A stretch of 64,000 bases of DNA from a bacterium (GTDB taxonomy: Bacteria; SAR324; NAC60-12): contig CBDBHR010000028.1 in NCBI GenBank assembly GCA_965205865.1, positions 64,001 through 128,000 on the forward strand, read 5' to 3'. Position numbers and translations under genes: made by a program. How positions within the stretch are numbered: position 1 is the stretch's first letter; each line of letters starts with the position of its first letter. Shown here piece by piece: positions 17,701 through 42,862 of this stretch. The notes below the pieces were generated by a model. The model was not told where the DNA came from and searched no databases. It saw nothing but the letters and a program-made list of their open reading frames with translations.

Positions 17701-18086
17701 GCGCGCCCGGTACCCCGGCCTTGCCTCGTCACCTCGTTCACCATCATCAGGAAAAACAGGTCGGTGGCCAACTCGGCCGCCCCGCGGGAGCCCGCTTCCG
17801 CACTTACGAGCGACTGAAGCAACACGCTGAACGGGTCAAAGACACGTTGTTCGATACCAAGTCCTTGCATCGCGCGATCGAGGATATCTATCGCTATCCT
17901 CTACGCCAGGCCGCGGTGGATGCGCTCAACCGTCAGTTGCGCAGTGGGGTTTCCGACGAAGCTCTTGGCGAATTGGTCGTCACCCTTCGGGATGAAGGTC
18001 GCCTTTGCATTGTCCATGACGAAGACGAACACCAGGAATTGCGCATCATCTGCTCCATGGGACTGACTGAAAAGAACGGGAACTGA
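14751..18086 (+). CDS. PLD-nuclease/SNF2-type helicase fusion
   Basis: LHAKLYL..GSSNLT (PLD), DVVGLGKT, IDESH, SATP, TDVLSEGQNLQ, QRVGRVDRIG. Confidence 0.9.
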   Translation: MPRIFDNIEQKLRPVLVETINAADRADFCVGYFNLRGWRLIDEQVEKWEGGEGRCCRILAGMQRLPHEEFQMASRFSDGQPSLDNQTALRLKKRLAEEFREQLTTGAPSNEDEKGLQRLARQLEAKKVVVKLFLKHTLHAKLYLLFRSDPINPIVAYLGSSNLTQAGLSRQGELNVDVLDHDACQKLAGWFEDRWNEHWCVDISQELIKIIKESWAREELIPPYQIYLKIAYHLSQEARAGLSEFRIPKDFGNKLLEYQTAAVKIAAHHLNKRGGVIIGDVVGLGKTLMATALARVFEDDHGYETLIICPKNLVPMWQDYSQQYRMRAHVLSISQVINKLPDLRRYRLVLIDESHNLRNREGRRYRAIQEYIRENDSKCILLSATPYNKTYADLSSQLRLFVPEHENLGLRPERLLRDIGETEFHARHQAPVRSLAAFEQSNYADDWRELMRLYLVRRTRSFIQENYATTDETNGRKYLTFEDGTRFYFPTRIPKTVRFHVDEQYSRLFADDVVEAINGLQLPRYGLGNYLLSNPRTLPTDNEKKILDDLSRAGKRLMGFCRTNLFKRLESSGHSFLLSLERHILRNYIFLHAIENDLSLPIGSTNAGLLDTHSFDGDAERTTRDIFDMDEDDENEEPKATTNLKTGDEFRHHAAEAYALFVDKYKKRFRWLAPHYFDKEFGKDLMTDATILSKLLLRFGEWQADRDAKLDALEKILVEEHPIRKVLVFSQFADTIHYLERRLQERGVTDLAAVTGDSANLTELAWRFSPKSNGKENRIASDNELRILIATDVLSEGQNLQDCAIVVNYDLPWAIIRLIQRVGRVDRIGQKAENILCCSFLPAEGVDRLIRLRERVRKRLHQNAEVVGTDEAFFEDEDQQNVLDLYNEKAGILDNDAETDVDLSSYAYQIWRNATEKDSSLRKIIEEMPSVVYTSKAYEQKPERPAGALVYIKTAQGNDALTWVDRNGNSVTESQFEILRAAECAPGTPALPRHLVHHHQEKQVGGQLGRPAGARFRTYERLKQHAERVKDTLFDTKSLHRAIEDIYRYPLRQAAVDALNRQLRSGVSDEALGELVVTLRDEGRLCIVHDEDEHQELRIICSMGLTEKNGN

Positions 18087-18087
18087 A

Positions 18088-21000
18088 ATGCCATCACCTT
18101 TCGACCGTAATAAAGTCAGAAAATATCTGCAGGATTTCACTCTCCAATCCCTGTTCATTTGTGAACTCGGCTGGGAGCACGGTGGCGTGGATGCGGAAGT
18201 CTCAGTCGCCGGCGAGACCTTTGCTCTCCAAGCCATTGCCCACAAACGCGGCATGGTCGCCTACCAGTGCATTGCAGAGACCGAAAATACTTTCCCCGAT
18301 TATCCCACTAGGCAGAAGATCGAAAAAGCCGTGGCAAAGATCGTCCACGAGCACATTATCGTCTACGTCTCACACGACCGGAACAGGCACTACTGGCAAT
18401 GGGTGAAGCGTCAACCCGGCCATCCCGGCAGAACGCGCCAGCACACCTATAGATCGGGACAAGCGGGAGAAGCGTTGATTCAAAAGCTGGAGCAAATCGC
18501 CTTCACCTTTGAAGAAGAAGAGAAGCTGACCCTCGTCGACGTATCGGGCCGAGTGCGGGCCGCCTTCGACGTCGAGAAGGTGACCAGGAAATTCTACGAC
18601 CGGTTCAAAAAAGAACACGACGTATTTCTACGATTCATCGAAGGAATCGAGAACGTGGCCGACCGTGCATGGTACGCCTCGCTCATGCTGAACCGCATGA
18701 TGTTCATCTACTTCATTCAGAAAAGGGGGTTTCTCGACAGCGACCCGCACTATTTGAGCAACCGTCTGCAACGCATGCAAACTGAGCAGGGTAGGGACCG
18801 CTTTCAGACTTTCTATCGCTTGTTCCTGTTGCGACTGTTCCACGAGGGACTGGGCCAACCCGAAACCGACCGTTCACCTGAATTAGTGGAACTGCTCGGC
18901 CAAGTCCCATACCTCAATGGCGGTTTGTTCGACGTCCACGATTTGGAGCGCGACAACCCGCAGATACATATCCCCGACATGGCCTTTGCCACCATTTTCG
19001 ACTTCTTCGACGCCTACCAGTGGCATCTCGACGACCGCCCGTTGCGCAACGACAACGAGATCAACCCCGACGTGCTCGGCTATATCTTCGAGAAATACAT
19101 CAACCAGAAGCAGATGGGGGCCTACTACACCAAGGAGGACATCACAGGCTATATCAGCCGCAACACCGTCATTCCCTTCCTTTTCGACCAAGCCGGAAAG
19201 CACTGTCCCATCGCATTCCAACCAGGCGGGGGCGTATGGCGATTGTTGTCGGGCGACCCGGACCGCTATTTTTATGAAGCGGTCCGCCACGGCATCAGCT
19301 ACGATATTCACACAAATGAAGAACTTGCGGACAGGCGCGAACTACCGCCGGAAATTGCCGCCGGGTTGCACGACGTCTCGAAACGAAGCGGTTGGAACAA
19401 GGCGGCTTCACGAGATTTTGCCCTGCCGACGGAGACCTGGCGCGAGCACGTCTCCCGTCGCCAGCACTATGAAACAGTTCACGACAGACTGTCCGCGGGA
19501 GTGGTCTCTTCGATCAACGAACTGATCACCTACAACCTGGACGTCGAGCAATTCGCCCGGGACGTGGTCACCTTAAGCGAGGGGCCCGAACTGGTGCGCG
19601 CCTTCTGGAAGACGCTCAACACGGTCTCCATCCTCGACCCGACTTGTGGTTCCGGCGCCTTCCTATTCGCCGCGCTCAACATCCTGGAGCCCTTGTACTT
19701 CGCCTGTCTGGCCGCAATGCGAGGATTCCTCGACGACCTTGAACGCTCCGGACGCAAGCACCACCCTGAGAAACTGAACGATTTCCGCAAGGTGCTGCAA
19801 CAGGTAGACGCTCATTCCAGCGAATCCTACTTCATTCTAAAATCCATCATCGTCGATAACCTCTATGGCGTGGACATCATGGCAGAGGCCGTGGAAATCT
19901 GCAAATTGCGGCTCTTCCTCAAGCTCGTCGCGCAATTGGAAAGTTACGAGCAGATCGAGCCACTGCCGGACGTCGACTTCAACGTCCGCGCCGGCAACAC
20001 CCTCGTCGGCTTCACTTCCCTGGAGAAGATACGGGAAGCCCTCACCATAACCAGCGACGGTCAACGAAGAATTCTCTATCCTGAGGATGAAGCCGAACTG
20101 CGTCGCCTCGAAGAGGACGCTGAAATCGCCGATCGCGCCTTCCACCGTTTCCGCGAAATGCAAACCGGACACGATATGGATGCCAGCGAATTTTCTGTCG
20201 CCAAATTGGAATTGAGAAAACGGTTGGATGGACTGCGCGAAGAGTTGAACCGCTACTTGGCGAGGGAATACGGTGTGGAGTCCACCGACAAAATTGCCTA
20301 CAAACAATGGCGGGACAGCCACCAACCTTTCCACTGGTTCGTTGAATTTTATGGAATTATGAGCAGCGGTGGTTTTGACGTGATTATCGGCAATCCACCG
20401 TATGTTGCAACGGGAAAGATTCGCAAATCCTACTCGGTGAGGAATATGGAAACTGAGGGCTGCCCCGACGTTTATGCTTGGATACTGGAGCGTACGGCAA
20501 ACCTGCTTAGCGACAAGGGACGTTCCGGAAAGATCGTACCGTTGAGCCTCGGCTTCAGTTCCCAGTTTGATGTTTGCCGAAAATTCCTATTTCGTCATTA
20601 CGAGCAAAATTGGTTCTCATCCTTTGGCAGAATCCCCGATGCTCTATTCAGTTTTAACGTCCGGGTCCGTAATACCGTTCATCTCGGGCACAGATCGGCT
20701 GATCCAAGAGTCTCCTATTCTACGCGCCTCCATCGCTGGTACAAGGAAGCGCGTGCACTGCTATTTGACAACATCCAGTACGTTCGTTTTCAGCCTAAAC
20801 TATGGGATCACCGCGTACCCAAACTGAATACGCAACCGCTTGCACAAGCCTTTGAATCGGCTCTTGAGCGCGGAAAGACGCTGGAACTCACTTTGCAACG
20901 CGTGACAAATCACAAACTGTACTTCAAGCAGACCGCCTACAATTGGCTTACCGTTTGTCGTATACTTCCCCCCTGTTACGAAGGAATGCAACAAGTTCCT

Positions 21001-21405
21001 CACTCGAAGGTAGCGGATCTTTACTTTGTGGATGCCAACACTCGTGAGCTTGCGATGCTGCTCGCGAGTGGCAAGCTGATGTTGGTTTTTTGGCTCGTGA
21101 TTGGTGACGATTTTGATGTAACGAGATCGAACCTCGCTAATTTTCCCGTGGACTTTGCCAGCTTACCCGAAACGACAAAGAAAAGCCTTTTGTCTATTTT
21201 GCCAGACTTGGAATCTGCTATGTCGGCTTCCATTCAGTACAAGGTGAATGCAGGCCTGCGCGTCGGTACATATAACTTGGCGAAATGTCGGCATGTGACT
21301 GACCTGAGCGATGCGCTGTTTGCATCGGCAATAGGATTCGACAACGTATTGGAGGACATTGATCTATACTACACCCAAGCGATAAAAACCGATTTTGGCA
21401 AATAA
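18088..21405 (+). CDS. Eco57I/type IIG-like DNA amino-methyltransferase with C-terminal TRD
   Basis: YLNGGLF, GAYYT, LDPTCGSGAF, DVIIGNPPY. Confidence 0.9.
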   Translation: MPSPFDRNKVRKYLQDFTLQSLFICELGWEHGGVDAEVSVAGETFALQAIAHKRGMVAYQCIAETENTFPDYPTRQKIEKAVAKIVHEHIIVYVSHDRNRHYWQWVKRQPGHPGRTRQHTYRSGQAGEALIQKLEQIAFTFEEEEKLTLVDVSGRVRAAFDVEKVTRKFYDRFKKEHDVFLRFIEGIENVADRAWYASLMLNRMMFIYFIQKRGFLDSDPHYLSNRLQRMQTEQGRDRFQTFYRLFLLRLFHEGLGQPETDRSPELVELLGQVPYLNGGLFDVHDLERDNPQIHIPDMAFATIFDFFDAYQWHLDDRPLRNDNEINPDVLGYIFEKYINQKQMGAYYTKEDITGYISRNTVIPFLFDQAGKHCPIAFQPGGGVWRLLSGDPDRYFYEAVRHGISYDIHTNEELADRRELPPEIAAGLHDVSKRSGWNKAASRDFALPTETWREHVSRRQHYETVHDRLSAGVVSSINELITYNLDVEQFARDVVTLSEGPELVRAFWKTLNTVSILDPTCGSGAFLFAALNILEPLYFACLAAMRGFLDDLERSGRKHHPEKLNDFRKVLQQVDAHSSESYFILKSIIVDNLYGVDIMAEAVEICKLRLFLKLVAQLESYEQIEPLPDVDFNVRAGNTLVGFTSLEKIREALTITSDGQRRILYPEDEAELRRLEEDAEIADRAFHRFREMQTGHDMDASEFSVAKLELRKRLDGLREELNRYLAREYGVESTDKIAYKQWRDSHQPFHWFVEFYGIMSSGGFDVIIGNPPYVATGKIRKSYSVRNMETEGCPDVYAWILERTANLLSDKGRSGKIVPLSLGFSSQFDVCRKFLFRHYEQNWFSSFGRIPDALFSFNVRVRNTVHLGHRSADPRVSYSTRLHRWYKEARALLFDNIQYVRFQPKLWDHRVPKLNTQPLAQAFESALERGKTLELTLQRVTNHKLYFKQTAYNWLTVCRILPPCYEGMQQVPHSKVADLYFVDANTRELAMLLASGKLMLVFWLVIGDDFDVTRSNLANFPVDFASLPETTKKSLLSILPDLESAMSASIQYKVNAGLRVGTYNLAKCRHVTDLSDALFASAIGFDNVLEDIDLYYTQAIKTDFGK

Positions 21406-21446
21406 AAGGTTAGCTGACGAAGGCGCTAGGAGATCCGATATGTGAC

Positions 21447-21602
21447 AACGGGACGGGTCACGCCGACAAGTTTGATCAGAAACCTTTAAAACCCATCGTT
21501 GACGAAATTGACCGAGTGTTCACACAGCAATACAGCTTCACGGACGAGGAGTTGGATTACATCATCAACTACGACATCAAGTACCGGATGGCAATTTGCT
21601 AA
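21447..21602 (+). pseudogene. Orphan alternative C-terminus of the same MTase family
   Basis: KPLKPIVDEIDRVFTQQYSFTDEELDYIINYDIKYRM, with no start codon. Confidence 0.7.
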
Positions 21603-21704
21603 GTCATACGAGACCATGAGCGACTTGACAAAACACGCGTGGTAAACTCGAAAAAACAGGATTGTCAACAGCAGGGCTCCGACTCCTATAGATCGGAAGT
21701 GAAA

Positions 21705-23105
21705 ATGACAGAATTTTTCAGATTCAGAAGTATAGAACAGTTGCTAGGAGATAAATACCAGGAGCTTGAAAGGCTAACTATCTACTTCGCCAGTCCTGAG
21801 GAACTCAATGATCCCATGGAAGGTTTCCGGGACATTGTGTGGAGCGGAGACAAAATTGTCTGGACCAATCTTTTCAAACATTACGTTCACTGCCTTTTTT
21901 TGACATATGTTAATTTTCAAGTAATTGGGGACACTACCGATTTGAAAGTCGTCGGCATCCCAATTTGGGGACGGTGGGATGAACCACTAAGCCCTCAAGC
22001 AAAAATTCAGTTTGATAACATCTGGGATAGGGTCTTCAATAAATGCGGACTAAGTAGACTCATTGAGAAAATAGTGAATATGAAGCGCAAAGTCAGACAC
22101 AATGAGCTACTGATTTATCTCTGGCCTATACATATTGATGTTGTGTTAGAAATCCAAGCAGAACTTGTTAAGCATGGTCTATTAACAGAATTAAAACTTC
22201 CACCACTTGGAAAATTACCCAGCGTAAAACAGTTTAACAAGATTTGTTTCTTTGAATCAATGGGACAGATTTAAGACAAAGAACTCATTGAAGTTTTCTC
22301 TTTATTTTCTCAATTAGTGTATCAATTAAAAATTGAGATGCGGCTTGTTTATAACAAAAATCGTACAATTGCTCCAGGAGTTCTAGAAAAGAACATGCAA
22401 CGGGTGTTAATCGATTTTCTCGAGATGTATGTGAAACGAATCGAGATCCTGCTTTGGCCCCAATGGTACACTGCTTGTTTTATGGGAAACTACCACAACT
22501 CGTCCGCATGGGGGCATTACGGAGGTGGCCATAAAGGCGTGTGTTTGATCTTTGAGGCTGTAGAATCGGATAAATCAAACAGCTTGGCATTGGATGGTTC
22601 CCCGAGGACTTTCTATGAGGTCAAATATGTGGAGAAAGCAGCTGAGATTTACTTCTTTCGGTCTATTGGTACGCTGCCAGAAGCCAAGCTGATGAATTTA
22701 TGGTATAGCGATCAAGATGGTAATCTCAGTGAATGTGGCAACCATATTGGAAAGGATGGTGACATTGACTCATGGAGGAAAAGCTATTGGGACGACTTTT
22801 ACGACTCAATCAGCATTAAAACCAAAGATTGGAACTATGAGCAAGAGCACCGGTTGATCTTAGATGGTCTACTCGGAAATCTCGAGAAAACGCAACGAGC
22901 CCTGAACTACGATTTCAACTCGTTGAAAGGTATTATTTTTGGAATGAGAACATCCGAAGAGGATAAGTTGAGAATTATTGAAATAATTAAACGGAAGTGC
23001 ATGGAAGAGAACCGTATTGACTTCAAGTTTTTTCAGGCCGACTACTCTCATGAGAGTGGCGACTTTCGCAAATATGAGATTTCTCAGATGTTTTCTGGTA
23101 CATAA
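21705..23105 (+). pseudogene. DUF2971-like protein with in-frame TAA at 22272-22274
   Basis: YFASPEELNDPMEG, WGHYGGGHKGVCLIF, KTKDWNYEQEHR; both ORFs are in the same frame. Confidence 0.75.
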
Positions 23106-23291
23106 TAATATCGACATACTTGGGAACTTTTCATGTAACCGGGATTCCCAAACTCCTGCGGTCTGGACTACGCTGCCCTCTTCTGCTCCACCCGCTGTCC
23201 CGCAGACGTTGTCCTCAAAATGTTCGATTTCACATCCCAGGCAGCGGGAGATGGGACTTGATAGCTGGACATAATTTTAGAAGAAATTGCC

Positions 23292-24218
23292 ATGCTGGTA
23301 TTTGACCTATTCTCGAAACGCCAAAAGAAACTTCGAGGGGATATCCCTGACGTCTATGTTTATGACGATTTGCCTGATCCTCTTAGAGTAAAAATTGTAC
23401 AAATCTGGTTGAAGACTCTTGGCAATGAACAACAAGCTATGTATGGAAATTATGTTTACGAACAAATAGTAGAAATCCTAAGGCATGAATATGGTGTTTT
23501 TCAATTACCAGTTACAAAAATGACTCCTCAGAACGCTTGTCAAGAGTTTGTAAATTTCTTCCTCCAAGAGAATGATATCGAAAAGGCTCTTGATGCAGTA
23601 GAGTTGTCATTTCGTTTAATAGATGGACCTACGAGAGAGTGGCAATACCTAAAACGACATGACGCTTCAGAAAAAGCAGATGACGCAATAGAAGAATTAA
23701 ATTACAGGTTCAGGGAGCATGGCATTGGTTATCAATTTTCGAATGGACAAATTATTCGCATGGATTCCGAGTTGATTCATGCCGAAATTGTTAAGCCTGC
23801 TCTCGAGTTGCTCAACCAACGTTACTATGCCGGAGCACAACAGGAGTTTTTGAAAGCGCACGAACACTAACGGAAGGGGAACGCGAAAGAAGCACTCAAT
23901 GAGTGTCTCAAAGCGTTCGAGAGTATAATAAAGGCAATTTGCGATAAGAGAGGCTGGAAAAATTTTAAAAAAGCAGCAGCAAAAGACTTAATAGAGGTGT
24001 GTTTTGACAACGACTTGATCCCATCGTTTTGGCAATCGCACTATTCATCCTTGAGAAATATTTTGGAGAGTAGTGTACCTACCGGTCGCAACAAGTTGAG
24101 TGGGCACGGTCAAGGTACAACTCCGGTATCCGTGCCAAATCACCTTGTTGCGTACATGTTGCACATGACGGCATCAGCTATTGTATTTCTGGCTGAAGCC
24201 GAAGAAAAATATCCATGA
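23292..24218 (+). pseudogene. AbiJ-N/Abi_C-related (STM4504-like) protein with in-frame TAA at 23868-23870
   Basis: FSKRQKKLRGDIPDVYVYD...HEH*RKGNAKEALNECLKAFES...RNKLSGHGQG in one frame. Confidence 0.75.
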
Positions 24219-24515
24219 TGACAAGCATAGGCATTGTTGCTTAAATAAAGTCGATGAGAAAACCTTTCCTTGTCCTTCTTATGCTTTGCGGGATTCCAGA
24301 ATTTCCAATATAATTTTTAAAGCACATCAAATCAAATTTTCGGTCACGTGATTGTCGAAGCGGGAGGCTCCGACCGGCTTCAGGGAATGCAAACAGTTTG
24401 GGTCAACAAGAGTTAACGACCGACGGTTACATTTTCCTTGACATCAACCGTCCATATGTTGCCTGGGCAACCTATCGAAGCGTGCTTATAACTCCCCCGA
24501 ATATAAAATAAGGAG

Positions 24516-25435
24516 TTGAGTCCGGCACAAAAAAGGAAGCTGTCCGATGTTTTGCGAGTCAAGGATGAAGGAGAGGCAGTCGCAGAGACACTTGAGAAGC
24601 GCATCAGCGGGGGCGGGCACTGCCCTCATTGCAAGCATAATCAATTTCAAAGGTGGGGAATATCACACGGGATGCAACGCTACCGTTGTAAAAGCTGCCT
24701 GAAGACCTTCAACGCAGCCACGGGGACCCCCGCGCGCCTGCGGAAAAAGGAGAAGTGGTTGGAGTATTCCAAGGCGATGGTTAACGGCCTGAGTGTCCGC
24801 AAGGTGGCCAGAAAATGCGGGATCGACAACAGCACCAGTTTCCGGTGGCGTCACCGTTTCCTGCATGGCTTGAGGGACAAGAAGGACAGCAGCCTCAAGG
24901 GGATAGTCGAGACCGACGAGACCTTCTTCCTGGAGTCGTTCAAAGGTTCGCGGAACCTGGGGCGCACAGCTCGCAATAGGGGCGGCAAGGCCACGAAGCG
25001 GGGGTTGTCGGCGGAGCAAATCCCGGTTCTGATCGCAAGGGACCGCCACGGAGAGATGACGGACGAAGTGCTGAAAGACCTCAGCGAAGTCTCGATCACC
25101 AAAGTGCTCAAGCCTGTCTTGGCACAGGATGCGGTCCTTTGCACGGACGGGAACAAATTTTATCAGGCATTCGTGGACACTGAGAACATCGCGCATGTCC
25201 GGCTGATCGCCTCCAACGAAAGCAGGGTCATTGACAAGGTCTATCACATTCAAAATGTCAACGCATATGACAGCCGTTTAAAAGGCTGGATGCGCCGATT
25301 CAATGGGGTTGCAACAAAATACTTCCCGAATTACTTGGGATGGAGGCGATGCCTTGAAAAACAGGGAAATTCAATCGCAGCGGTGACCTATCTCCATTGT
25401 GCTTTGGAGTGACAAATACTAAACGCAAATAGAGC
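24516..25435 (+). mobile_element. IS1595-family transposase (5' end probably clipped)
   Basis: Zn ribbon CPHC/YRCKSC, ETDETFF, CTDG, YHIQNVNAYDSRLKGW, GVATKY. Confidence 0.85.
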
Positions 25436-29226: not shown

Positions 29227-30249
29227 TTAGCTGTAGCGGACCCTGGGGTCCAAATAGGGATAAATCAGGTCGGTCAGGAGAATGATCACCATCACGAGGG
29301 AGGCGTAAAACATGTTGACTCCGGAGACCACCGGGTAGTCTCGCAGTTTGAGTGCATTCAGCAAGAGATCACCTAGTCCGGGCAGGTTGAAGATGTTCTC
29401 CATGATCACCGAGCCACCGATCAGGAGTGGCAACTGCATGCCGATCAGAGTCACGACCGGGATGAGGGAATTTTTAATGGCGTGTCTTATCACCACGATA
29501 CGCTCCCGGAGCCCCTTGGACCAGGCGGTGCGGATATAATCCTGCCGGAGCACCTCCAGCATCATGGTGCGCGTCATCCGCATGGTGCTGGCCGACATGG
29601 CCGTCCCCAGAATTAGGCTGGGAATGATGAGAATCCCGAGATTCCCCAGCGGGTCTTCGGTGAAAGGAACCCACTCCATCGGGGGCGACCAACCCCACCA
29701 GATCGCTGGGAAGATCATCACCATCAGGGCCAGCCAGAAGTTGGGAGTTGCCATGCCGATGATGGCGGCGGTGCGCCCCACGTAGTCGGCGGCCGTATCC
29801 TGGCGAATCGCCGAGTAGATGCCGACGGGCAGCGCGATCACCAACCCGATGACGATGGACAGGACACCAAGCCCCATGCTGACCGGTAATCTACCTATTA
29901 GCTTCTCCTCTACCGCCCACTGGCCAAACAGTGACGTGCCAAGGCTGCCCTGGAGGAGACCTTTAAAGTGGGACTCACCGGTAAGCCAGTCAGGGGTCGG
30001 CAACACTCCTATCCAGCGTCCATACTGCACGTAGACAGGCACGTCCAGTCCCAGCATACGCTCAAGAGCTTCACGGTCAATCTCCCATGCCCCCCCCAGG
30101 TACTCCTCTGACACCAGCATTCCCACCATTACGTCTATTGCATCGCCCGGGATGAAGCGCACCGAGAGAAAGACGATGATGCTCAGGATAAACAGGGTGG
30201 GGATGATCAGTAATATCCGCCTGATGATATAGGCTCTCATCTCGCACAC
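29227..30249 (-). CDS. Peptide/nickel ABC permease (DppB-like), copy 1
   Basis: RFIPGDA, MLEVLRQDYIRTAWSKG, LDPRVRY. Confidence 0.9.
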   Translation of the reverse strand: MCEMRAYIIRRILLIIPTLFILSIIVFLSVRFIPGDAIDVMVGMLVSEEYLGGAWEIDREALERMLGLDVPVYVQYGRWIGVLPTPDWLTGESHFKGLLQGSLGTSLFGQWAVEEKLIGRLPVSMGLGVLSIVIGLVIALPVGIYSAIRQDTAADYVGRTAAIIGMATPNFWLALMVMIFPAIWWGWSPPMEWVPFTEDPLGNLGILIIPSLILGTAMSASTMRMTRTMMLEVLRQDYIRTAWSKGLRERIVVIRHAIKNSLIPVVTLIGMQLPLLIGGSVIMENIFNLPGLGDLLLNALKLRDYPVVSGVNMFYASLVMVIILLTDLIYPYLDPRVRYS

Positions 30250-30294
30250 CTCATCATTTTTGAAATTGGCAGGGAAACGCGGGGTATCCTAGAG

Positions 30295-30320
30295 TGGACC
30301 GGGCAGTCCTGCCCGGTCCA
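30295..30320. terminator. Perfect 12-bp hairpin between SBP and permease (repeated at 35036-35061)
   Basis: TGGACCGGGCAG-TC-CTGCCCGGTCCA; terminator or mRNA-stabilising role not established. Confidence 0.45.
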
Positions 30321-30338
30321 TCAGTACTTCCAGTCGGC

Positions 30339-32165
30339 CTACCACTGGCTCTTGTCCTTCAATTCCTGGTCAATCCAGAGCCGGGCGAAGATGGCAACAT
30401 TATTGCTCTGGACGGACAGACCGCCTTCAGCGTTGAAACCTATGACCCACGGCTGGCTCGCGTAAAACTGCGGAATTTTAGGACCCCATATATGCTCGTG
30501 CTTCAATATCTGGTGCCAATCGCACGCTTTAACCAGCCTCGCCTGCTCCTCAAGGGTGGTAGCGGCCTTGACCCCTTCATGCATTGCCTCTTGGACCGGA
30601 TCATCCGGAAGCTTCATGTAAAATTTCGAGGGCGCATAGCACGTGCTGGTAGGGGGATAGTCGAGGCCCAGATGCCACCCCTGCAACGCTAACCCGCCCC
30701 CGCCCCAAGTACCTTCCTCGGCCATAGCCATCCAAACAGGTCGCTCTATTGTCTCAATCTCTCCAGCAATGCCAATCTCAGCAAGGTAGGCTTTAACTAT
30801 TTCAAGATAGCCCAAATCAGTGTTAGAGCGGAGTACCAGGGGGAGCGAGAATCTAACGCCGTCGGCGCCGCGCGGAAACCCGGCCTCATCAAGGAGCTTC
30901 TCGGCACCTTCCGGGTCATAGATCCAGTATTGCTTGACCTCCTCGGGCCACTCTTCAAATGGGTTTCTATACCCGCCGATGATATTGTCCCCTACTTTCC
31001 CCTGAGGTATCCACTTGCCCTGACCCTTAAAGTAGGTATTTACAATGGTCTCGAGGTCCAGTGCCATCTGTATTGCGTGGCGCACCATAATGTCGTCAAG
31101 TGGCGACGGCACGAAAGGATTATAAGCCGACAAACTGTAGTTCGACCGAAAATCCCACTTGTACAACTTGATTTCGGGGTTGGTCCGCCTGATGCTCTCT
31201 GCAAATTCGACATTCATATAGGCCCCATCGTGCTTAATGATATCAATCTTAGCCGTGCGCAGTGCCGCCGCGACTGTTGCGGGTTCCTGAATAAGCAGGT
31301 TCCTTACCTGGTCAGTATAGGGCAAGCGGTTCTCCGGGTATTTTTCGTCGTAGCCCCAGTAGTCAGGATTCTTGGTATAGGTTATAGAGCTGCCTTCGAC
31401 CCAGTCCGTGATCTCATAGGGCCCGGTGCCGACCAGATTCTTCCAATCCGCTCTCTTAATAATGCCCTGTGGCACTTCAGCAGTCCTTGATTCCTCGATT
31501 ACCTCAGGGGGAAACATATAACCACTGTACGTGGTGGCGATATTCACAAGCGCATTGAGGTCAAACTGGCTCAGCTTAAAAACAACCGTCCATTTGTCGG
31601 TCGCTGTTATCGATTCCATTCGCAGCGTCCCATAAGCCATCATCCACACCCCGGGTTCGGCTTCACTGAACTCGGTCCCTGTTAACTCGTTTCCCATTAT
31701 ACGGTGAAAGTTGTATTCGACATCAGCAGCAGTAAACTCTCTCCCGTTCATCGGTGGCTTATTATGCCAGCGAACGCCCTTACGGATATGGAAGGTCCAG
31801 GTGAGGCCGTCCGGGGAAATTTCCCAGCTTTCCGCCAGCAGCCCTTTTATCACTTTAGAATCCAGGTACGATGGGGGAAAGGTCCATTCATTCCTATCTA
31901 TTCCCCAGTCCGCCATGCCTAGCGTCTCGACGACGCCGGCGATGACCCACGGCCCCCCGCAGCAGTAGTAGGTGTCAATCTGGGTCACGTTTGCTGCATG
32001 GACATAGGTCAATGTCCCTCCGTATTCCGGTGCAGTCACGACCTCACCAGTTGTGGGATCGGTCACATACTTCTGGGCGGCAGCCGGGCTGACCCAAAAA
32101 GCTGTCACCATCAGGATGAGGGTTAACAACAATGGTTGCATTTTTCCTCTTTTACTTTTTTGCAT
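30339..32165 (-). CDS. ABC substrate-binding protein family 5 (DppA-like), copy 1
   Basis: Signal peptide, PEYGGTL, LAESWEISPDG, VGTGPY, YDPEGAEKLLDEAG. Confidence 0.9.
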   Translation of the reverse strand: MQKSKRGKMQPLLLTLILMVTAFWVSPAAAQKYVTDPTTGEVVTAPEYGGTLTYVHAANVTQIDTYYCCGGPWVIAGVVETLGMADWGIDRNEWTFPPSYLDSKVIKGLLAESWEISPDGLTWTFHIRKGVRWHNKPPMNGREFTAADVEYNFHRIMGNELTGTEFSEAEPGVWMMAYGTLRMESITATDKWTVVFKLSQFDLNALVNIATTYSGYMFPPEVIEESRTAEVPQGIIKRADWKNLVGTGPYEITDWVEGSSITYTKNPDYWGYDEKYPENRLPYTDQVRNLLIQEPATVAAALRTAKIDIIKHDGAYMNVEFAESIRRTNPEIKLYKWDFRSNYSLSAYNPFVPSPLDDIMVRHAIQMALDLETIVNTYFKGQGKWIPQGKVGDNIIGGYRNPFEEWPEEVKQYWIYDPEGAEKLLDEAGFPRGADGVRFSLPLVLRSNTDLGYLEIVKAYLAEIGIAGEIETIERPVWMAMAEEGTWGGGGLALQGWHLGLDYPPTSTCYAPSKFYMKLPDDPVQEAMHEGVKAATTLEEQARLVKACDWHQILKHEHIWGPKIPQFYASQPWVIGFNAEGGLSVQSNNVAIFARLWIDQELKDKSQW

Positions 32166-33967: not shown

Positions 33968-34990
33968 TTAGCTGTAGCGGACCCTGGGGTCCAAATAGGG
34001 ATAAATCAGGTCGGTCAGGAGAATGATCACCATCACGAGGGAGGCGTAAAACATGTTGACTCCGGAGACCACCGGGTAGTCTCGCAGTTTGAGGGCATTC
34101 AGCAAGAGATCACCTAGTCCGGGCAGGTTGAAGATGTTCTCCATGATCACCGAGCCACCGATCAGGAGTGGCAACTGCATGCCGATCAGAGTCACGACCG
34201 GGATGAGGGAATTTTTAATGGCGTGTCTTATCACCACGATACGCTCCCGGAGCCCCTTGGACCAGGCGGTGCGGATATAATCCTGCCGGAGCACCTCCAG
34301 CATCATGGTGCGCGTCATCCGCATGGTGCTGGCCGACATGGCCGTCCCCAGAATTAGGCTGGGAATGATGAGAATCCCGAGATTCCCCAGCGGGTCTTCG
34401 GTGAAAGGAACCCACTCCATCGGGGGCGACCAACCCCACCAGATCGCTGGGAAGATCATCACCATCAGGGCCAGCCAGAAGTTGGGAGTTGCCATGCCGA
34501 TGATGGCGGCGGTGCGCCCCACGTAGTCGGCGGCCGTATCCTGGCGAATCGCCGAGTAGATGCCGACGGGCAGCGCGATCACCAACCCGATGACGATGGA
34601 CAGGACACCAAGCCCCATGCTGACCGGTAATCTACCTATTAGCTTCTCCTCTACCGCCCACTGGCCAAACAGTGACGTGCCAAGGCTGCCCTGGAGGAGA
34701 CCTTTAAAGTGGGACTCACCGGTAAGCCAGTCAGGGGTCGGCAACACTCCTATCCAGCGTCCATACTGCACGTAGACAGGCACGTCCAGTCCCAGCATAC
34801 GCTCAAGAGCTTCACGGTCAATCTCCCATGCCCCCCCCAGGTACTCCTCTGACACCAGCATTCCCACCATTACGTCTATTGCATCGCCCGGGATGAAGCG
34901 CACCGAGAGAAAGACGATGATGCTCAGGATAAACAGGGTGGGGATGATCAGTAATATCCGCCTGATGATATAGGCTCTCATCTCGCACAC
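33968..34990 (-). CDS. DppB-like permease, copy 2
   Basis: Protein identical to copy 1. Confidence 0.9.
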   Translation of the reverse strand: MCEMRAYIIRRILLIIPTLFILSIIVFLSVRFIPGDAIDVMVGMLVSEEYLGGAWEIDREALERMLGLDVPVYVQYGRWIGVLPTPDWLTGESHFKGLLQGSLGTSLFGQWAVEEKLIGRLPVSMGLGVLSIVIGLVIALPVGIYSAIRQDTAADYVGRTAAIIGMATPNFWLALMVMIFPAIWWGWSPPMEWVPFTEDPLGNLGILIIPSLILGTAMSASTMRMTRTMMLEVLRQDYIRTAWSKGLRERIVVIRHAIKNSLIPVVTLIGMQLPLLIGGSVIMENIFNLPGLGDLLLNALKLRDYPVVSGVNMFYASLVMVIILLTDLIYPYLDPRVRYS

Positions 34991-35079
34991 CTCATCATTT
35001 TTGAAATTGGCAGGGAAACGCGGGGTATCCTAGAGTGGACCGGGCAGTCCTGCCCGGTCCATCAGTACTTCCAGTCGGC

Positions 35080-36906
35080 CTACCACTGGCTCTTGTCCTT
35101 CAATTCCTGGTCAATCCAGAGCCGGGCGAAGATGGCAACATTATTGCTCTGGACGGACAGACCGCCTTCAGCGTTGAAACCTATGACCCACGGCTGGCTC
35201 GCGTAAAACTGCGGAATTTTAGGACCCCATATATGCTCGTGCTTCAATATCTGGTGCCAATCGCACGCTTTAACCAGCCTCGCCTGCTCCTCAAGGGTGG
35301 TAGCGGCCTTGACCCCTTCATGCATTGCCTCTTGGACCGGATCATCCGGAAGCTTCATGTAAAATTTCGAGGGCGCATAGCACGTGCTGGTAGGGGGATA
35401 GTCGAGGCCCAGATGCCACCCCTGCAACGCTAACCCGCCCCCGCCCCAAGTACCTTCCTCGGCCATAGCCATCCAAACAGGTCGCTCTATTGTCTCAATC
35501 TCTCCAGCAATGCCAATCTCAGCAAGGTAGGCTTTAACTATTTCAAGATAGCCCAAATCAGTGTTAGAGCGGAGTACCAGGGGGAGCGAGAATCTAACGC
35601 CGTCGGCGCCGCGCGGAAACCCGGCCTCATCAAGGAGCTTCTCGGCACCTTCCGGGTCATAGATCCAGTATTGCTTGACCTCCTCGGGCCACTCTTCAAA
35701 TGGGTTTCTATACCCGCCGATGATATTGTCCCCTACTTTCCCCTGAGGTATCCACTTGCCCTGACCCTTAAAGTAGGTATTTACAATGGTCTCGAGGTCC
35801 AGTGCCATCTGTATTGCGTGGCGCACCATAATGTCGTCAAGTGGCGACGGCACGAAAGGATTATAAGCCGACAAACTGTAGTTCGACCGAAAATCCCACT
35901 TGTACAACTTGATTTCGGGGTTGGTCCGCCTGATGCTCTCTGCAAATTCGACATTCATATAGGCCCCATCGTGCTTAATGATATCAATCTTAGCCGTGCG
36001 CAGTGCCGCCGCGACTGTTGCGGGTTCCTGAATAAGCAGGTTCCTTACCTGGTCAGTATAGGGCAAGCGGTTCTCCGGGTATTTTTCGTCGTAGCCCCAG
36101 TAGTCAGGATTCTTGGTATAGGTTATAGAGCTGCCTTCGACCCAGTCCGTGATCTCATAGGGCCCGGTGCCGACCAGATTCTTCCAATCCGCTCTCTTAA
36201 TAATGCCCTGTGGCACTTCAGCAGTCCTTGATTCCTCGATTACCTCAGGGGGAAACATATAACCACTGTACGTGGTGGCGATATTCACAAGCGCATTGAG
36301 GTCAAACTGGCTCAGCTTAAAAACAACCGTCCATTTGTCGGTCGCTGTTATCGATTCCATTCGCAGCGTCCCATAAGCCATCATCCACACCCCGGGTTCG
36401 GCTTCACTGAACTCGGTCCCTGTTAACTCGTTTCCCATTATACGGTGAAAGTTGTATTCGACATCAGCAGCAGTAAACTCTCTCCCGTTCATCGGTGGCT
36501 TATTATGCCAGCGAACGCCCTTACGGATATGGAAGGTCCAGGTGAGGCCGTCCGGGGAAATTTCCCAGCTTTCCGCCAGCAGCCCTTTTATCACTTTAGA
36601 ATCCAGGTACGATGGGGGAAAGGTCCATTCATTCCTATCTATTCCCCAGTCCGCCATGCCTAGCGTCTCGACGACGCCGGCGATGACCCACGGCCCCCCG
36701 CAGCAGTAGTAGGTGTCAATCTGGGTCACGTTTGCTGCATGGACATAGGTCAATGTCCCTCCGTATTCCGGTGCAGTCACGACCTCACCAGTTGTGGGAT
36801 CGGTCACATACTTCTGGGCGGCAGCCGGGCTGACCCAAAAAGCTGTCACCATCAGGATGAGGGTTAACAACAATGGTTGCATTTTTCCTCTTTTACTTTT
36901 TTGCAT
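35080..36906 (-). CDS. DppA-like substrate-binding protein, copy 2
   Basis: Protein identical to copy 1. Confidence 0.9.
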   Translation of the reverse strand: MQKSKRGKMQPLLLTLILMVTAFWVSPAAAQKYVTDPTTGEVVTAPEYGGTLTYVHAANVTQIDTYYCCGGPWVIAGVVETLGMADWGIDRNEWTFPPSYLDSKVIKGLLAESWEISPDGLTWTFHIRKGVRWHNKPPMNGREFTAADVEYNFHRIMGNELTGTEFSEAEPGVWMMAYGTLRMESITATDKWTVVFKLSQFDLNALVNIATTYSGYMFPPEVIEESRTAEVPQGIIKRADWKNLVGTGPYEITDWVEGSSITYTKNPDYWGYDEKYPENRLPYTDQVRNLLIQEPATVAAALRTAKIDIIKHDGAYMNVEFAESIRRTNPEIKLYKWDFRSNYSLSAYNPFVPSPLDDIMVRHAIQMALDLETIVNTYFKGQGKWIPQGKVGDNIIGGYRNPFEEWPEEVKQYWIYDPEGAEKLLDEAGFPRGADGVRFSLPLVLRSNTDLGYLEIVKAYLAEIGIAGEIETIERPVWMAMAEEGTWGGGGLALQGWHLGLDYPPTSTCYAPSKFYMKLPDDPVQEAMHEGVKAATTLEEQARLVKACDWHQILKHEHIWGPKIPQFYASQPWVIGFNAEGGLSVQSNNVAIFARLWIDQELKDKSQW

Positions 36907-38669: not shown

Positions 38670-39196
38670 AGGGGTGAAAAAAGCCTGCTTCTATGAACCG
38701 GATATCAATCCCACTTACCACGAATTGGCCCCTCAGAAAGGAGTTTATGATTACTGTCTCTACTTTTGAAAAATTGAAATCCATGAAGTTTTGGGGAATG
38801 GCCAAGCTTTTCAAGAACAAATGTCCTCCAGTCAGTATGATCGTTTGAGTTTTGAAGAACGCTTGGGCTTGCTGGTGGACCGGGAAGCCAGTGAAAGAGA
38901 AAACCGTCGTATGCAATCCGGATTGAAACAAGCTGCTTTACGACAACAAGCCTGTATCCGGGACATTGACCATACGCTGCCCGGAGGATTAGATCCCGCA
39001 CTGATGCAATCCCTCTACAGCGGCCTGTGGATTAAAGAACATCTCAATATCCTCATCTGCGGACCGACTGGGATCGGGAAAAGTTTTATTGCCTGTGCCC
39101 TGGGACATCAAGCCTGTTTGCAGGGAGCCCGAGTCAAATACTTGAGAATCCCTCGATTGCTGCCCCAGTTGGCCTTAGCCAGAGGAGATGGCGCCA
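38670..39196 (+). mobile_element. IS21-family remnant (istA fragment + frameshifted, truncated istB)
   Basis: GVKKACFYEPDINPTYHELA; LSFEERLGLLVDRE, GPTGIGKSFIACALG. Confidence 0.8.
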
Positions 39197-39435
39197 ATCT
39201 GATCAACGGGTTTCGCTTCAATTAAAAAACAAAAACATTAAAGTTTAAGGGGATAAGTGCGTCCAAAACATGAGAAATGAAGACTTTCCACATCTGAAAA
39301 CAGCATATTGATGCTCATTCTCACTCAAACATCCATGGATTTGATGATCAAAATCTGATTTCAGAATGATTGCCTTTCTCAGGTAAAAAAATCATCTTGA
39401 AAATCTGATCCTTTTTTAGAATCGCTCAATTTAGG

Positions 39436-40197
39436 AAGAACTTACTGCTTGATTTCCTAAACAGTGTCCTGTCACCACAGTTTCCCATTTCGGATGTTGA
39501 AATCCTCAACCCCTACAATGATCGCGAGTTTTATTCGGACAAGTTGACGATTGTCGATGTGAAAGCCAGAGATGAAAAAGGGACGACCTATCAGATCGAA
39601 ATTCAATTGGCGGTTTTTTCTTATCTGCCGGAGAGGATGCTCTACACGTGGAGTGATATCTATCAGTCCCAGTTACAAAGTGGGGAGCCATTCTCAGAAT
39701 TAAGTCCGGTTATCTCCATTTGGATGTTGACTGAAAATCTGATTCCTGATAGTCCGGCCTTTCATCATCACTTCCAACTGGTGGATCGAGAGAACCAAAA
39801 ACGATTATCGGACCATTGCTCAATTCATATATTGGAATTGGACAAATGGCGGTATTCCGAGACCTTGAACACAGAAGATCAATGGTTATATTTTTTTAAA
39901 GAAGCTGAGCATTGGGAGGAATTACCCGAAATCATCAACACCCCTAACATGAGACAAGCGATGGCAGTCTTAGAGCGATTTTCAGAAAAAGAAGCCAACT
40001 ATCACTTATACCAAGCCCGTCAGAATGCTTTGCGTGAGGAGAAAACAAGACAAAAGTTTTTGGAAGAAGCCTTGCGGAGAGAGGAAGAGGCGGTGAGAGA
40101 GAAGGAAGAGACTCTGAGGAGAGAAGAAAAGGAGAGAGCTGAGAAAGAGCGGCTCATGGAAAACTTGAAAAAAGCAGGAATTGATCCGGATGAATAA
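39436..40197 (+). pseudogene. Rpn/PD-(D/E)XK nuclease-family protein, 5'-truncated
   Basis: LLDFLNSVL..EILNPYN..IVDVKARD..YQIEIQ; the usual N-terminal motif is missing. Confidence 0.75.
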
Positions 40198-40253
40198 ACG
40201 GTCTTTCCTCGGTTTCTCATGACGAGCACACATGCGATAATTCAAGAAAAAAG

Positions 40254-40378
40254 TGCCAACCAGGCGGTTCACTTGACGCCCACCCCTGCGCTTTTCACGA
40301 AGGTTTGTGACAGATTGTCAGTTCATCTCTATTCCAATGGTCATTACCGGGTGGGCGCAAGTGACCTTGACGTTCTGC
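40254..40378 (+). mobile_element. attC-like integron site 1
   Basis: TGCCAAC...GTTCTGC; arms GGTTCACTTGACGCCCACCC / GGGTGGGCGCAAGTGACC pair with two extrahelical bases. Confidence 0.75.
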
Positions 40379-40476: not shown

Positions 40477-40728
40477 ATGGATCTTATTCTTGCAAAATAT
40501 TCTGCCAGTATTTCAGAACTCAAAAAAAATCCCTCTGCATTACTTCAGCAAGCCGATGGCAGCCCTATCACCATTTTAAATCACAACAAACCAACAGCTT
40601 ATCTAGTCCCAGCAGAGACATATGAAGCGCTTTTGGAGAAACTAGAAGATTACGAATTGGGAGAGTTGGTGAAACAACGCCAACATGAAAAGGGAAAAGC
40701 TATCGAGGTTTCACTAGATGAGTTATAA
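40477..40728 (+). CDS. Phd/YefM (StbD/YafN-like) antitoxin
   Basis: ASISELKKNP..ILNHNKPTAYLV. Confidence 0.9.
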   Translation: MDLILAKYSASISELKKNPSALLQQADGSPITILNHNKPTAYLVPAETYEALLEKLEDYELGELVKQRQHEKGKAIEVSLDEL

Positions 40729-41008
40729 ATTAAAGTTTTTGCCGACGGCATTGAAGGAGTGGAAGAAATTAGATACTTCTATTCAATCACAGTTGAAGAA
40801 AAAACTGGCGGAACGTTTAGAGAATCCACATATACCAGCTAGTAAGCTTTCAAGTTTTGCGAATCACTATAAAATCAAGCTCCGTACAAGTGGTTATCGG
40901 TTGGTGTACGAGGTTATTGATGATGAATTAGTCGTGATGGTGATTGTAATTGGAAAACGTGAAAGAGAAAGAGTCTATGAAATTGCAAAAGATCGATCAA
41001 AGGCATAA
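40718..41008 (+). CDS. RelE/StbE toxin
   Basis: ALKEWKKLD..YKIKLRTSGYRLVY..IGKRER. Confidence 0.9.
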   Translation: MSYKLKFLPTALKEWKKLDTSIQSQLKKKLAERLENPHIPASKLSSFANHYKIKLRTSGYRLVYEVIDDELVVMVIVIGKRERERVYEIAKDRSKA

Positions 41009-41087
41009 CAAATCAGTCCAGTGTATTTCGGGGGCGCTAGTCGTACCTCCTTCTGCCCCACTCAAATACTGAATTTTCACGTTGGAC
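41003..41087 (+). mobile_element. attC-like integron site 2
   Basis: GCATAAC (contains the relE stop)...GTTGGAC; arms TCCAGTGTATTT / AAATACTGAA. Confidence 0.65.
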
Positions 41088-41261
41088 TCCAAAAAGTTTT
41101 CTCTCACATATATTTTCTAAAACATTTTATCGTTGAAAACTAATTCTACTTATTGTACGATATTACCGTACTTTTAAATCAAATTAGTTTCACATCCCTT
41201 TATTGGAGGATGAGCCATTATGCGAGAGGTGACAGTAAATCAATTTAGATCTACCCTTAAA

Positions 41262-41682
41262 TCTTGAGCATCCCGCCCCAGCTGGGAAACTCGACGGGCA
41301 GACCGAATCCCAGGAAGCTCAGCCATAATCACCCTCCCGATGTTGATCGAGAAGACGATGATGATCGGGGCCATGATATTCGGCAGGACATGGCGGATCA
41401 GGATTTGGCTTGTCGAGGTGCCCACGGCCCGGGCGGCCAGAAAATAATCATTCTCTTTGATGCCGATCACCACGCCTCGCATGATTCGGGAACCGCCGAT
41501 GCCGCCGGCGACCCCCAGGACGACGATGATCTGGAGGAGACCCTGTCCCACGATGGACATGATGGTTAACAAGAGCAGCAGCCCCGGAAAGGCCATCCAG
41601 GCATCGACAAAGCACTGCATGGCCAGGTCCACTTTCCTCCCCAGAAATCCGGAAATGCCGCCGATCAGGGTACTGATCACAA
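41262..41682 (-). pseudogene. Internal DppC-like fragment
   Basis: VDAWMAFPGLLLLL...IKENDYFLAA...; both ends missing, frameshifted. Confidence 0.75.
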
Positions 41683-41749
41683 CCCTTTCTTTTTTTTGCC
41701 CCCTTTTTTTCGAGCGTTTCCGTTCCGTTTTCATGCCTTGACATGGAAA

Positions 41750-42071
41750 TCATGGCCTAGTTATCCCTCTGGTAGGATAGGAGAGGATGACCTCGTAGGT
41801 AAACTTATCGGTTGCAATTTGCCGACAATGGGGTTACCCTGACCGATGATAAAAGGCAGTGTGATGCCTGAAATGGCAGTGTGACTCTCTCTTGTCGCTC
41901 ATACACCAAGATGATGAAAGCGAGAGGACAGAGAAAAACGTTCTCATATGTCGTCAGGCTAAGTGATCAGTGCTGTCATCCGGGTGGAATTTGCTTGAGC
42001 CTCGTGCTTGGAAAGGTGCATGCGAGGATCTGAGAGATCTGGGACTTGGCAACAAGTCCTGGCTACCCGAC
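41750..42071 (+). ncRNA. Group II intron remnant (D5/D6 clear, no RT ORF, 5' end not found)
   Basis: 34-nt D5 GAGCCTCGTGCTTGGAAAGGTGCATGCGAGGATC (41997-42030); D6 GGGACTTG-GCAA-CAAGTCCT...CTACCCGAC ending in AC. Confidence 0.8.
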
Positions 42072-42099
42072 AGGAATTCACAATCATCAGGAGAAAATT

Positions 42100-42312
42100 A
42101 TGAGTAGCAAAGAATTATTAAAAGAAGCCTTGCGTCTAAGGCCCCAAGAAAGATTCGCAATCATTGAGGGGTTGCTAAAAAGCTTGGACGAGCCAGACAA
42201 GGACATTGATGAAATTTGGGCGATTGAAGCCGAAAAGAGATTAAATGCTTATCGATCTGGAGGATTGAAAGGCATTGCCATGGAAGAAATATTTGGGAAC
42301 ACAAAAAAATGA
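42100..42312 (+). CDS. Addiction-module antitoxin component
   Basis: EALRLRPQER...IDEIWAIEAEKRLNAY. Confidence 0.85.
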   Translation: MSSKELLKEALRLRPQERFAIIEGLLKSLDEPDKDIDEIWAIEAEKRLNAYRSGGLKGIAMEEIFGNTKK

Positions 42313-42605
42313 AAATTTTGTTTACTGAATTGGCGAGAGCAGAGTTGATTGACGCGATTGCCTATTATGAAATGGAAGTTCCAGGATTAGGAGAGACATT
42401 CAAGGACGAAGTTGCTTCTGCGACAATGCGCATTAGTCACTTTCCTCAAGCTTGGTCCATCGAACGAGGCGACGTTCGCAAATGTATTATGCATAAATTC
42501 CCCTATAAGGTTTTGTATTCCATTGAAGAAGATCACATTCTGATTATTGCGATTGCGCACCAGCATAGAAAACCCGACTACTGGATCGATGACAAACCTT
42601 CCTAA
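42309..42605 (+). CDS. RelE/ParE-family toxin
   Basis: AELIDAIAYYE..GLG..F, KFPYKVLY, IAIAHQHRKPDYW. Confidence 0.85.
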   Translation: MKILFTELARAELIDAIAYYEMEVPGLGETFKDEVASATMRISHFPQAWSIERGDVRKCIMHKFPYKVLYSIEEDHILIIAIAHQHRKPDYWIDDKPS

Positions 42606-42668
42606 CCAGGCATTTGACCTGATCGCTTTCCGCTATGCTCTAAGCGACAGGTCAACTTTACGTTGGGC
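42600..42668 (+). mobile_element. attC-like integron site 3
   Basis: TCCTAAC (contains the toxin stop)...GTTGGGC; arms TTGACCTGATCGCTT / AAGCGACAGGTCAA. Confidence 0.8.
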
Positions 42669-42862
42669 TCTGCATATCAAACAACATCACAAACATGGAG
42701 TATCTATGTCAAATGATGATTTAGAAGAAGATCGGGAAACTCGTATTGAGAACTTAAAACGTAAAATGAAAAAAGGGGACAGTCCCCTTTTTTCGGGTGT
42801 GGACGCGCCCACTCGGTCACGCCCGATCCCAGCCTGACCATTGTCGTCCTTACCCTCTGAAG

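Follow-up and report, generated by a model that had tools for sequence, protein, structure and literature searches.

Whether the recombination sites (attC) that integron gene cassettes carry can serve as targets for group II introns outside class IIC is the question raised by a short locus of a SAR324 bacterium (NAC60-12; GenBank assembly GCA_965205865.1). The stretch that was analyzed, referred to below as the window, comprises 64,000 nucleotides of contig CBDBHR010000028.1 (positions 64,001 to 128,000 of the forward strand). An earlier note had described 41750 to 42668 of the window as a non-IIC group II intron remnant that was apparently inserted into an attC core directly upstream of a toxin-antitoxin (TA) gene pair. 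In attC sites, which are 57 to 141 nt long, an R'' box (RYYYAAC) and an R' box (GTTRRRY) enclose a hairpin that is imperfect and has extrahelical bases. Judged by its sequence, the 3' stub at 41980 to 42071 is a relic of a group II intron, and an insertion of this intron at GTT^AGGAA (the caret marks the insertion point), with an attC core as its target, is plausible. The features of the locus are listed in Table 1.

The assignment of the stub to group II rests on its nucleotide homology of 72 to 79% with intron 3' ends, as the gathering score of the intron model was not reached. In a permissive Rfam scan of 41200 to 42800 (1.6 kb), RF00029 (Intron_gpII) matched 41995 to 42071 of the plus strand, complete from model position 1 to 77, with 33.2 bits and an E value of 2.6e-4. 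The gathering score of this model is 40 bits, which is why the stub is missing from the gathering-threshold scan, and a tRNA was the sole match in the curated-threshold scan of the window. In blastn searches of plasmids, 41991 to 42071 aligned with the 3' ends of Streptomyces introns (72 to 79% identity), and 41993 to 42057 was 79% identical to a remnant that a Shewanella baltica plasmid carries; these Streptomyces and Shewanella tails score 47.7 to 51.4 bits against RF00029. In a four-way alignment, the stub and the Streptomyces and Shewanella tails share one endpoint, ...CCGAC, indicating that the 3' splice site lies at 42071/42072 and that the 3' exon begins with AGGAATTC. The sequence and the RF00029 match thus agree with the earlier description of a 34-nt domain 5 (D5) with an AGC triad and a GAAA loop and of an intron end at ...CCCGAC (42071), followed by AGGAATTC. 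A 75-nt pattern built on D5 and domain 6 (D6) matched the window once and matched none of 100 window shuffles. Recognizable intron sequence begins at about 41980 with CCGGGT..GGAAT..TTGCTT, which is common to several relatives such as L157, and the hairpin that intervenes in those relatives is not present in the stub.

The lineage of the stub is not IIC, as far as its D5 and the proteins of its relatives tell, in agreement with the earlier note. Its D5 has 34 nt and an AGC triad, in contrast to the shorter D5 and CGC triad of intron copies elsewhere in the genome, which we take to be IIC, and an HNH domain is encoded by two of the three relatives scanned. No second member of the stub's lineage was found in its own genome, where the 38 RF00029 matches belong to other intron families. 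One such intron occurs at a paralogue of the TA pair downstream of the stub (cassette 4), which is present with and without the intron at C15:6100-7200 and C30:856900-857900; it has a CGC-triad D5, is taken as IIC, and was inserted right after a T-run (...TTTTTTGT^TAGC), forming a natural pair of filled and empty sites.

The stub end adjoins the leader of cassette 4 base for base, and the two lie on the plus strand, as do the TA genes. The antitoxin and toxin of cassette 4 are adjacent small open reading frames (ORFs) that overlap by 4 nt and match the two Pfam families of a type II TA system. The toxin ORF ends within TTCCTAAC (42599-42606), with its stop codon TAA at 42603-42605 inside R''. 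The R'' box opens a 69-nt attC-like site (site 3), whose fold is an imperfect hairpin. A single base is bulged in its first arm, the z score is -3.9, and none of 200 shuffles folded as well; the first base of R'' is T instead of R. The R'' box at the end of the cassette, noted earlier, is real. Homologues of the toxin were found at 19 loci (53 to 72% identity), in Chloroflexi, Gammaproteobacteria, Desulfobulbia, Campylobacterota, Bacteroidota, and other groups. In L024, the homologous pair lies between clear attC sites, starting 29 nt after GTTATGT and ending in ATATAAC. In both L024 and L040, 29 nt separate GTT and ATG, compared with a leader of 28 nt in the window, and L040 shares the leading motif. 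These observations show that the TA pair of cassette 4 is cassette-like.

The AGGAA directly after the stub is the reverse complement of TTCCT in the R'' region of cassette 4 itself (5 of 5 positions). A simple calculation gives a probability of about 1 in 1000 for a chance match of this length, because the splice site fixes its position. The earlier note had invoked the rule that the leading core of a cassette complements its own trailing R'' box, and the rule also holds in the neighboring cassette 2, in which 6 of the 7 bases of the leading core, GTTCTGC, agree with GTTATGC, the reverse complement of that cassette's R''. Together with the leader length of 28 versus 29 nt, the complementarity of AGGAA makes ...GTT^AGGAA the best reading of the junction, with the GTT presumably having preceded AGGAA in the lost 5' exon. 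The insertion into an attC core in cassette orientation that was claimed for this locus is thereby upheld for the orientation and for a position at the expected start of a cassette; the GTT and the attC arm are not visible here.

Cassette 4 is the last unit of an array at 39.4 to 42.7 kb, which is best explained as a degenerate, integrase-less, integron-type array. The array includes two good and one weak attC-like sites within 2.4 kb and has no intI. The first unit carries a PD-(D/E)XK gene, paralogues of which occur elsewhere in the genome and in another genome of the same genus (G001). Site 1, which follows this gene, folds with a z score of -3.1 on the bottom strand and -3.4 on the top strand and has two bulged bases in its first arm. 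It belongs to a family of 127-nt hairpin repeats, for which nhmmer gave 14 matches in the genome, on at least five contigs; the window copy is at 40248-40374, and the others include C30:645340, 664588, 706139, 714764, and 988809; C23:129556; C28:544860 and 582258; C24:4650 and 44509; and C26:213727. Similarity among the copies extends to ...CGTT and ceases beyond it (agcacc, ctgcct, gggcct, ggctgg, and others), the pattern that is expected of attC sites whose R' box is completed by the next cassette. Family-specific attC repeats are also represented by the VCR of Vibrio. A portion of the weak site 2 (41005-41072) has a counterpart at C28:358203-358270, with 85% identity. The AAC-CAGGC that follows R'' is common to sites 1 and 3, and TTNAC precedes GTT at all three sites. 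The third cassette is cut off at 41264, immediately before the onset of homology to permease paralogues (41265). The array is closed off from a convergent short-chain dehydrogenase/reductase (SDR) gene by a hairpin at 42768-42794, which resembles a strong bidirectional terminator (12 pairs, with T-runs on either strand).

The array resembles clusters of attC sites without an integrase (CALINs), which are defined by at least two attC sites close together without a nearby intI (PMC7923331), and the array is accordingly described here as CALIN-like. It shares with CALINs and with the arrays of sedentary chromosomal integrons a repeat family that is conserved to the G/TT of R' and variable after it, as well as TA stop codons within R''. 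It differs from them in the absence of an integrase and in the scattering of the repeat copies over at least five contigs rather than in one long array. Integron-type cassettes and a repeat family that looks like a species-specific attC family are thus present in a genome whose assembly has no integrase.

The relatives of the stub provide further evidence on the target. A scan of metagenomes with the D5-D6 pattern returned at least 119 matching stretches, and the 119 listed ones plus two Streptomyces copies make up the set of 121 relatives; 20 of these that were scanned scored 47 to 68 bits against RF00029. Both junctions were located in 56 of the 121, namely, 29 copies of more than 2 kb and 27 ORF-less copies of less than 1.1 kb. 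In 10 of the 56 (L061, L068, L088, L109, L110, L115, L116, L145, L161, and L164, with L110 and L115 representing one target), the 5' exon ends in GTTNNN and the 3' exon starts with C or T. One further copy, L134, is located at ATTAGG^C, and another, L067, has the junction ...GCTTAAC TTTGC GTT^AGAC, which is the register proposed for the stub. Clear attC-like flanks were found at L061, L088, and L109, with RYYYAAC boxes complementary to the core at 6 of 7 positions and sites of 66 to 91 nt; L088 and L109 have extra bases in the first arm, as do the sites of the window. The upstream flank of L110 and L115 contains an 18-bp hairpin, and the flank of L161 also contains a hairpin, while the flanks of L068, L145, L134, L164, and L067 are weak or too short for judgment. 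TA-type genes lie downstream of L061 on the strand of the intron. The introns in GTT-type cores therefore lie in cassette orientation.

The exon-binding site 1 (EBS1) of the relatives is located in the loop of a conserved hairpin of domain 1 (D1) and tracks the 5' exon. The loop CCUAAC occurs with GTTAGG, UUCAAC pairs with GTTGGA (L109), and UAUUGA pairs with TCAATA at a non-attC target (L135). In L067, the loop GACGUU pairs with GCGTT through five pairs, two of which are wobble pairs; the same loop would likewise pair with ACGTT, which stands before R' in each of the window's three sites. The proteins of L110 and L049 contain the RVT_N, RVT_1, GIIM, and HNH domains, and that of L086, the third one scanned, lacks HNH.

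The region upstream of the stub, which had been read as intron from 41750 to 41979, is not part of it: a higA-like pseudogene that also occurs at two other loci lies there, next to a permease fragment. The DppC-like permease fragment has more than 100 paralogous blastn matches in its own 4.7-Mb genome, at 65 to 91% identity and many of them at 80 to 90%, and the same pattern is seen in G001. For the pseudogene, identity is 88% between 41785-41929 and C26:283020-283163 and 73% between 41704-41895 and C23:116889-117101. The window copy of this helix-turn-helix fragment has in-frame stops, and a tblastn search with the HigA of the same genome as the query recovered KGSVMPEMAV*LSL with an E value of 5e-5 in a small search space. 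The fragment occurs at three loci, each beside ABC transporter debris and other TA or defense-type genes, and the true HigA is located near C26:279900. The conserved upstream element was rejected as a structured RNA, with no Rfam match at E values up to 10, and as a permease fragment, since six-frame tblastn showed no similarity to the ABC paralogues.

An intron 5' end at 41879 (GTGTGAC..GTCGC, similar to GTGCGAC..GTCGCAC of the lineage) was also rejected. It was a candidate because the lineage begins with GTGCGACACGAGGTCGCAC. The stretch, however, is higA-like coding sequence, in which GTGTGAC corresponds to V-R-L codons; it is conserved in the C26 and C23 copies and in the true HigA as MPEMA(V/L)RLSL, its alignment with the true HigA reads KGS(V/I)MPEMA(V/L)RLSL, and the C23 copy has CTGCGAC. 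The unassigned 49 nt between the pseudogene and the stub (41931-41979) showed no similarity in the own genome, in relatives, or to a reverse transcriptase. No relatives of 41690-42100 were found in 40 related genomes or in 88 genomes of the phylum (G000 included); two short matches of 42076-42103 are chance matches to the ribosome-binding regions of unrelated genes. In G001, there is no match to 41670-42847, and the flanking SDR gene and PD-(D/E)XK paralogues are present.

The rest of the intron is missing, and the stub itself has decayed. The D1D4 family gave no Rfam match at E values up to 10 in 41200-42800, and no reverse-transcriptase remnant was found upstream of D5 by tblastn with LtrA. 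The description of D5 as canonical was not confirmed. cmscan flagged nonstandard pairs, namely, G.A below the triad and, in the distal stem, U.U and G.G, and the window has GGATC in place of the GGTTC of 121 of 121 relatives and AGAGATC in place of the AGGGGGC of 118 of 121. In the four-way alignment, three basal pairs of D6 around the branch-point A are broken, and the distal helix is retained through two compensatory pair changes relative to Streptomyces. The highest D5-D6 identity of the window to the relatives was 76% among the matches listed, and 41930-42075 folds no better than shuffles (z score of -0.6). A sigma-70 scan listed neither an outward promoter in the stub nor the TTGACA-type promoter-like stretch of the higA-like fragment. 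The stub is a dead fossil, and a function is not likely.

Several results weigh against an attC core as the target of the intron. The 5' exon is gone, its place being taken by the permease fragment and the higA-like pseudogene, so that the GTT and the attC arm are not observable and the insertion at GTT^AGGAA is unproven. An intron-less allele (expected start ...ACGTTAGGAATTC) was not found by a motif search of the own genome, in G001, or among the 19 homologous TA loci. Other targets are used by 44 of the 56 relatives, and the GTT^RRRY register occurs in only 1 of the 56, most of the attC-inserted relatives using GTTNNN^Y. In a 95-column tree, a long branch leads to the stub, which groups with L048, L086, and L072/L163; these relatives are inserted outside attC cores, and all GTT-core rows are in the other major clade. 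This placement is tentative, because an approximately unbiased (AU) test did not reject a grouping of the window with L067 (P = 0.46). The fold of site 2 is not above that of shuffles (z score of -0.8). No integron integrase was found in the 92% complete assembly, in which the best TIGR02249 match scored 43 bits against a cutoff of 265, or among the 75 ORFs of the window. A loose attC heuristic gave 298 matches genome-wide against 222 in block shuffles; this is no enrichment, and the heuristic was therefore not used as evidence.

These results would be accommodated by an ordinary, sequence-matched insertion upstream of a TA operon with a chance attC-like hairpin, in which no attC was targeted and the AGGAA match is a coincidence. 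The diverse targets of the relatives, the tree neighbors outside attC cores, and the lack of an integrase favor such an insertion, as does the shortness of the match, which covers 5 nt and contains AGGA, a sequence that resembles a ribosome-binding motif. We nevertheless consider it unlikely, given that the 5-of-5 match is at a position set by the splice site (chance of about 0.001), that the leader is as long as those of homologous cassettes, that cassette 2 obeys the same complementarity rule, and that the real Shine-Dalgarno sequence of cassette 4 (AGGAG) lies downstream at 42089-42093. Alternatively, the stub may be cargo: the intron may have entered the 5' leader of cassette 4 itself, or else an older cassette, so that the true cassette boundary lay further upstream and has been lost. 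Nothing upstream of 41980 can be checked on this point, but no GTTRRRY core was seen in 41931-42071, and both the AGGAA/R'' complementarity and the leader length would have to be coincidental, which makes this alternative quite improbable. It is scarcely credible that the D5-D6 match arose by chance at a place that never had an intron: the score below the gathering threshold, the nonstandard pairs, and the poor fold would fit a look-alike, yet 81 nt are 72 to 79% identical to annotated introns with the same end base, the pattern is absent from the shuffles, and D6 shows compensatory changes.

Under the preferred reading, an insertion at GTT^AGGAA, the intron would have entered the attC site upstream of cassette 4 by reverse splicing into its top strand, in or at the R' core, with a 5' exon ending in ...ACGTT and a 3' exon beginning with AGGAA. 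It would have been guided by pairing of the EBS1 loop with the core and the spacer rather than by the hairpin-plus-TTGT/T rule of IIC-attC introns, a mechanism that for the window copy is extrapolated from the relatives. The insertion probably took place in a previous host. In the order of events that we infer, a later rearrangement would have replaced the 3' part of the previous cassette, its attC, and all except the last 92 nt of the intron with the permease fragment and the higA-like pseudogene, and the stub would then have decayed.

A broader interpretation, which we put forward tentatively and hold to be slightly less probable than its converse, is that the lineage represents a second, independent mode of group II intron homing to integron sites. 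It would involve a non-IIC, often HNH-bearing lineage with many ORF-less derivatives of about 0.8 to 1.0 kb and an EBS1 complementary to the attC R' core, with the window copy as a fossil at ...ACGTT^AGGAA. An EBS1 complementary to the R' core implies entry into the top strand, in cassette orientation and at the head of the next cassette. If this is true, group II introns have colonized attC sites at least twice via different recognition rules, namely, bottom-strand recognition of a hairpin and TTGT/T by IIC-attC introns and top-strand pairing through a six-base EBS1 by the lineage of the stub. The lineage is widespread in the environment, and 12 of its 56 copies with both junctions (about one-fifth) are in GTT-type cores, several of them in clear attC-like sites. 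Such introns could be moved together with cassettes, and they could affect cassette expression because they lie between the promoter side of the cassette and its gene. The value of the stub is that of a pointer, and the pattern among the relatives is the more interesting lead.

The phenomenon has already been reported in outline, and the "different attC-targeting mode" of the earlier note is thus not a new observation. As described by Sonbol and Siam (2021; PMC7923331), a full IIB1 intron is located in cassette orientation immediately after an attC site, and two 5'-truncated IIB remnants consisting of domains V and VI only lie in a CALIN that is rich in TA genes, the genome having no intI. The locus resembles these cases in the non-IIC class of the intron, its cassette orientation, its position at or just after an attC site, the reduction to domains V and VI, the TA-rich array, and the lack of intI. 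It differs from them in that the proteins of those introns (CL1, class E) are described as having no endonuclease domain, compared with HNH in two of the three relatives scanned here, and in that those authors report no exon conservation and suggest a possible role of the hairpin, compared with EBS1 pairing with the R' core among the relatives. A full-text literature search, with subscription journals and the supplements of PMC7923331 outside its scope, returned on this subject only that paper and a 2015 review, and EBS1 pairing with an attC R' core thus seems to be undescribed in the literature covered.

IIC-attC introns, such as S.ma.I2 and its relatives, are likewise group II introns at attC sites next to a GTT core. 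As described by Leon et al. (2010; PMC3001079), they enter the attC bottom strand at R'', in the orientation opposite to that of cassette transcription, using the attC hairpin and an intron-binding site 1 (IBS1) of 3 to 4 bp, without an endonuclease; their target is given as TTGT/T in PMC7923331. In contrast, the stub is located on the top strand at the R' end; this is the plus strand, which also carries the TA genes and on which the attC-like sites read from R'' to R'. Its D5 is of the AGC type with 34 nt, and its lineage includes proteins that bear HNH. An Enterobacter intron in the top strand of attC, cited in PMC7923331, shares the strand and the cassette orientation with the stub and differs from it in being IIC.

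Table 1. Features of the cassette array and intron stub, with coordinates in the window
Feature	Coordinates	Strand	Evidence or remarks
5'-truncated PD-(D/E)XK (PDDEXK_2) gene, first cassette-like unit	39436-40229	+	Pfam E value 2.5e-34, profile 56-223 of 229
attC-like site 1, R'' TGCCAAC, R' GTTCTGC	40254-40378	+	125 nt; copy of 127-nt repeat family
Cassette 2, Phd/YefM antitoxin and ParE toxin	40477-41008	+	Pfam PhdYeFM_antitox 9.4e-15, ParE_toxin 2.9e-13
Weak attC-like site 2, R'' GCATAAC overlapping stop codon, R' GTTGGAC	41003-41087	+	Sequence
Start of third cassette, palindromic stretch (putative operator) and first 15 codons of Phd-like antitoxin	41083-41264	+	ATG at 41220, read from sequence
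ABC peptide permease (DppC-like), internal fragment	41265-41683	-	Pfam BPD_transp_1 2.6e-17; not intron
higA-like antitoxin pseudogene fragment with TTGACA-type promoter-like stretch	41690-41930	+	Paralogous copies in C26 and C23; not intron
Decayed non-IIC group II intron 3' stub: end of domain 4 (D4), D5 (41997-42030), and D6 to the 3' splice site	41980-42071	+	RF00029 33.2 bits; 72-79% identity to plasmid intron 3' ends
Cassette 4 leader, 28 nt, begins AGGAA	42072-42099	+	Sequence
Cassette 4 antitoxin (Unstab_antitox; ATG at 42100) and ParE-family toxin	42100-42605	+	PF09720 2.1e-13, PF05016 2.4e-10
attC-like site 3, R'' TCCTAAC (42600-42606) overlapping stop codon, R' GTTGGGC (42662-42668)	42600-42668	+	69 nt; fold z score -3.9

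Other features of the window include a repeat of about 247 nt at 39189-39435, which has more than 30 copies at 95 to 98% identity across the genome and is probably the end of an abundant mobile element. A permease and solute-binding-protein pair occurs twice, at 29230-32165 and 33971-36906, with identical Pfam scores and lengths, and both copies precede an IS66 transposase fragment, which points to a recent segmental duplication. A defense-type island at 14679-25409 contains an SNF2/PLD helicase-nuclease, an Eco57I/MmeI-like methylase, DUF2971, fragments of the AbiJ N-terminal domain and DUF7014, and an IS1595 transposase.

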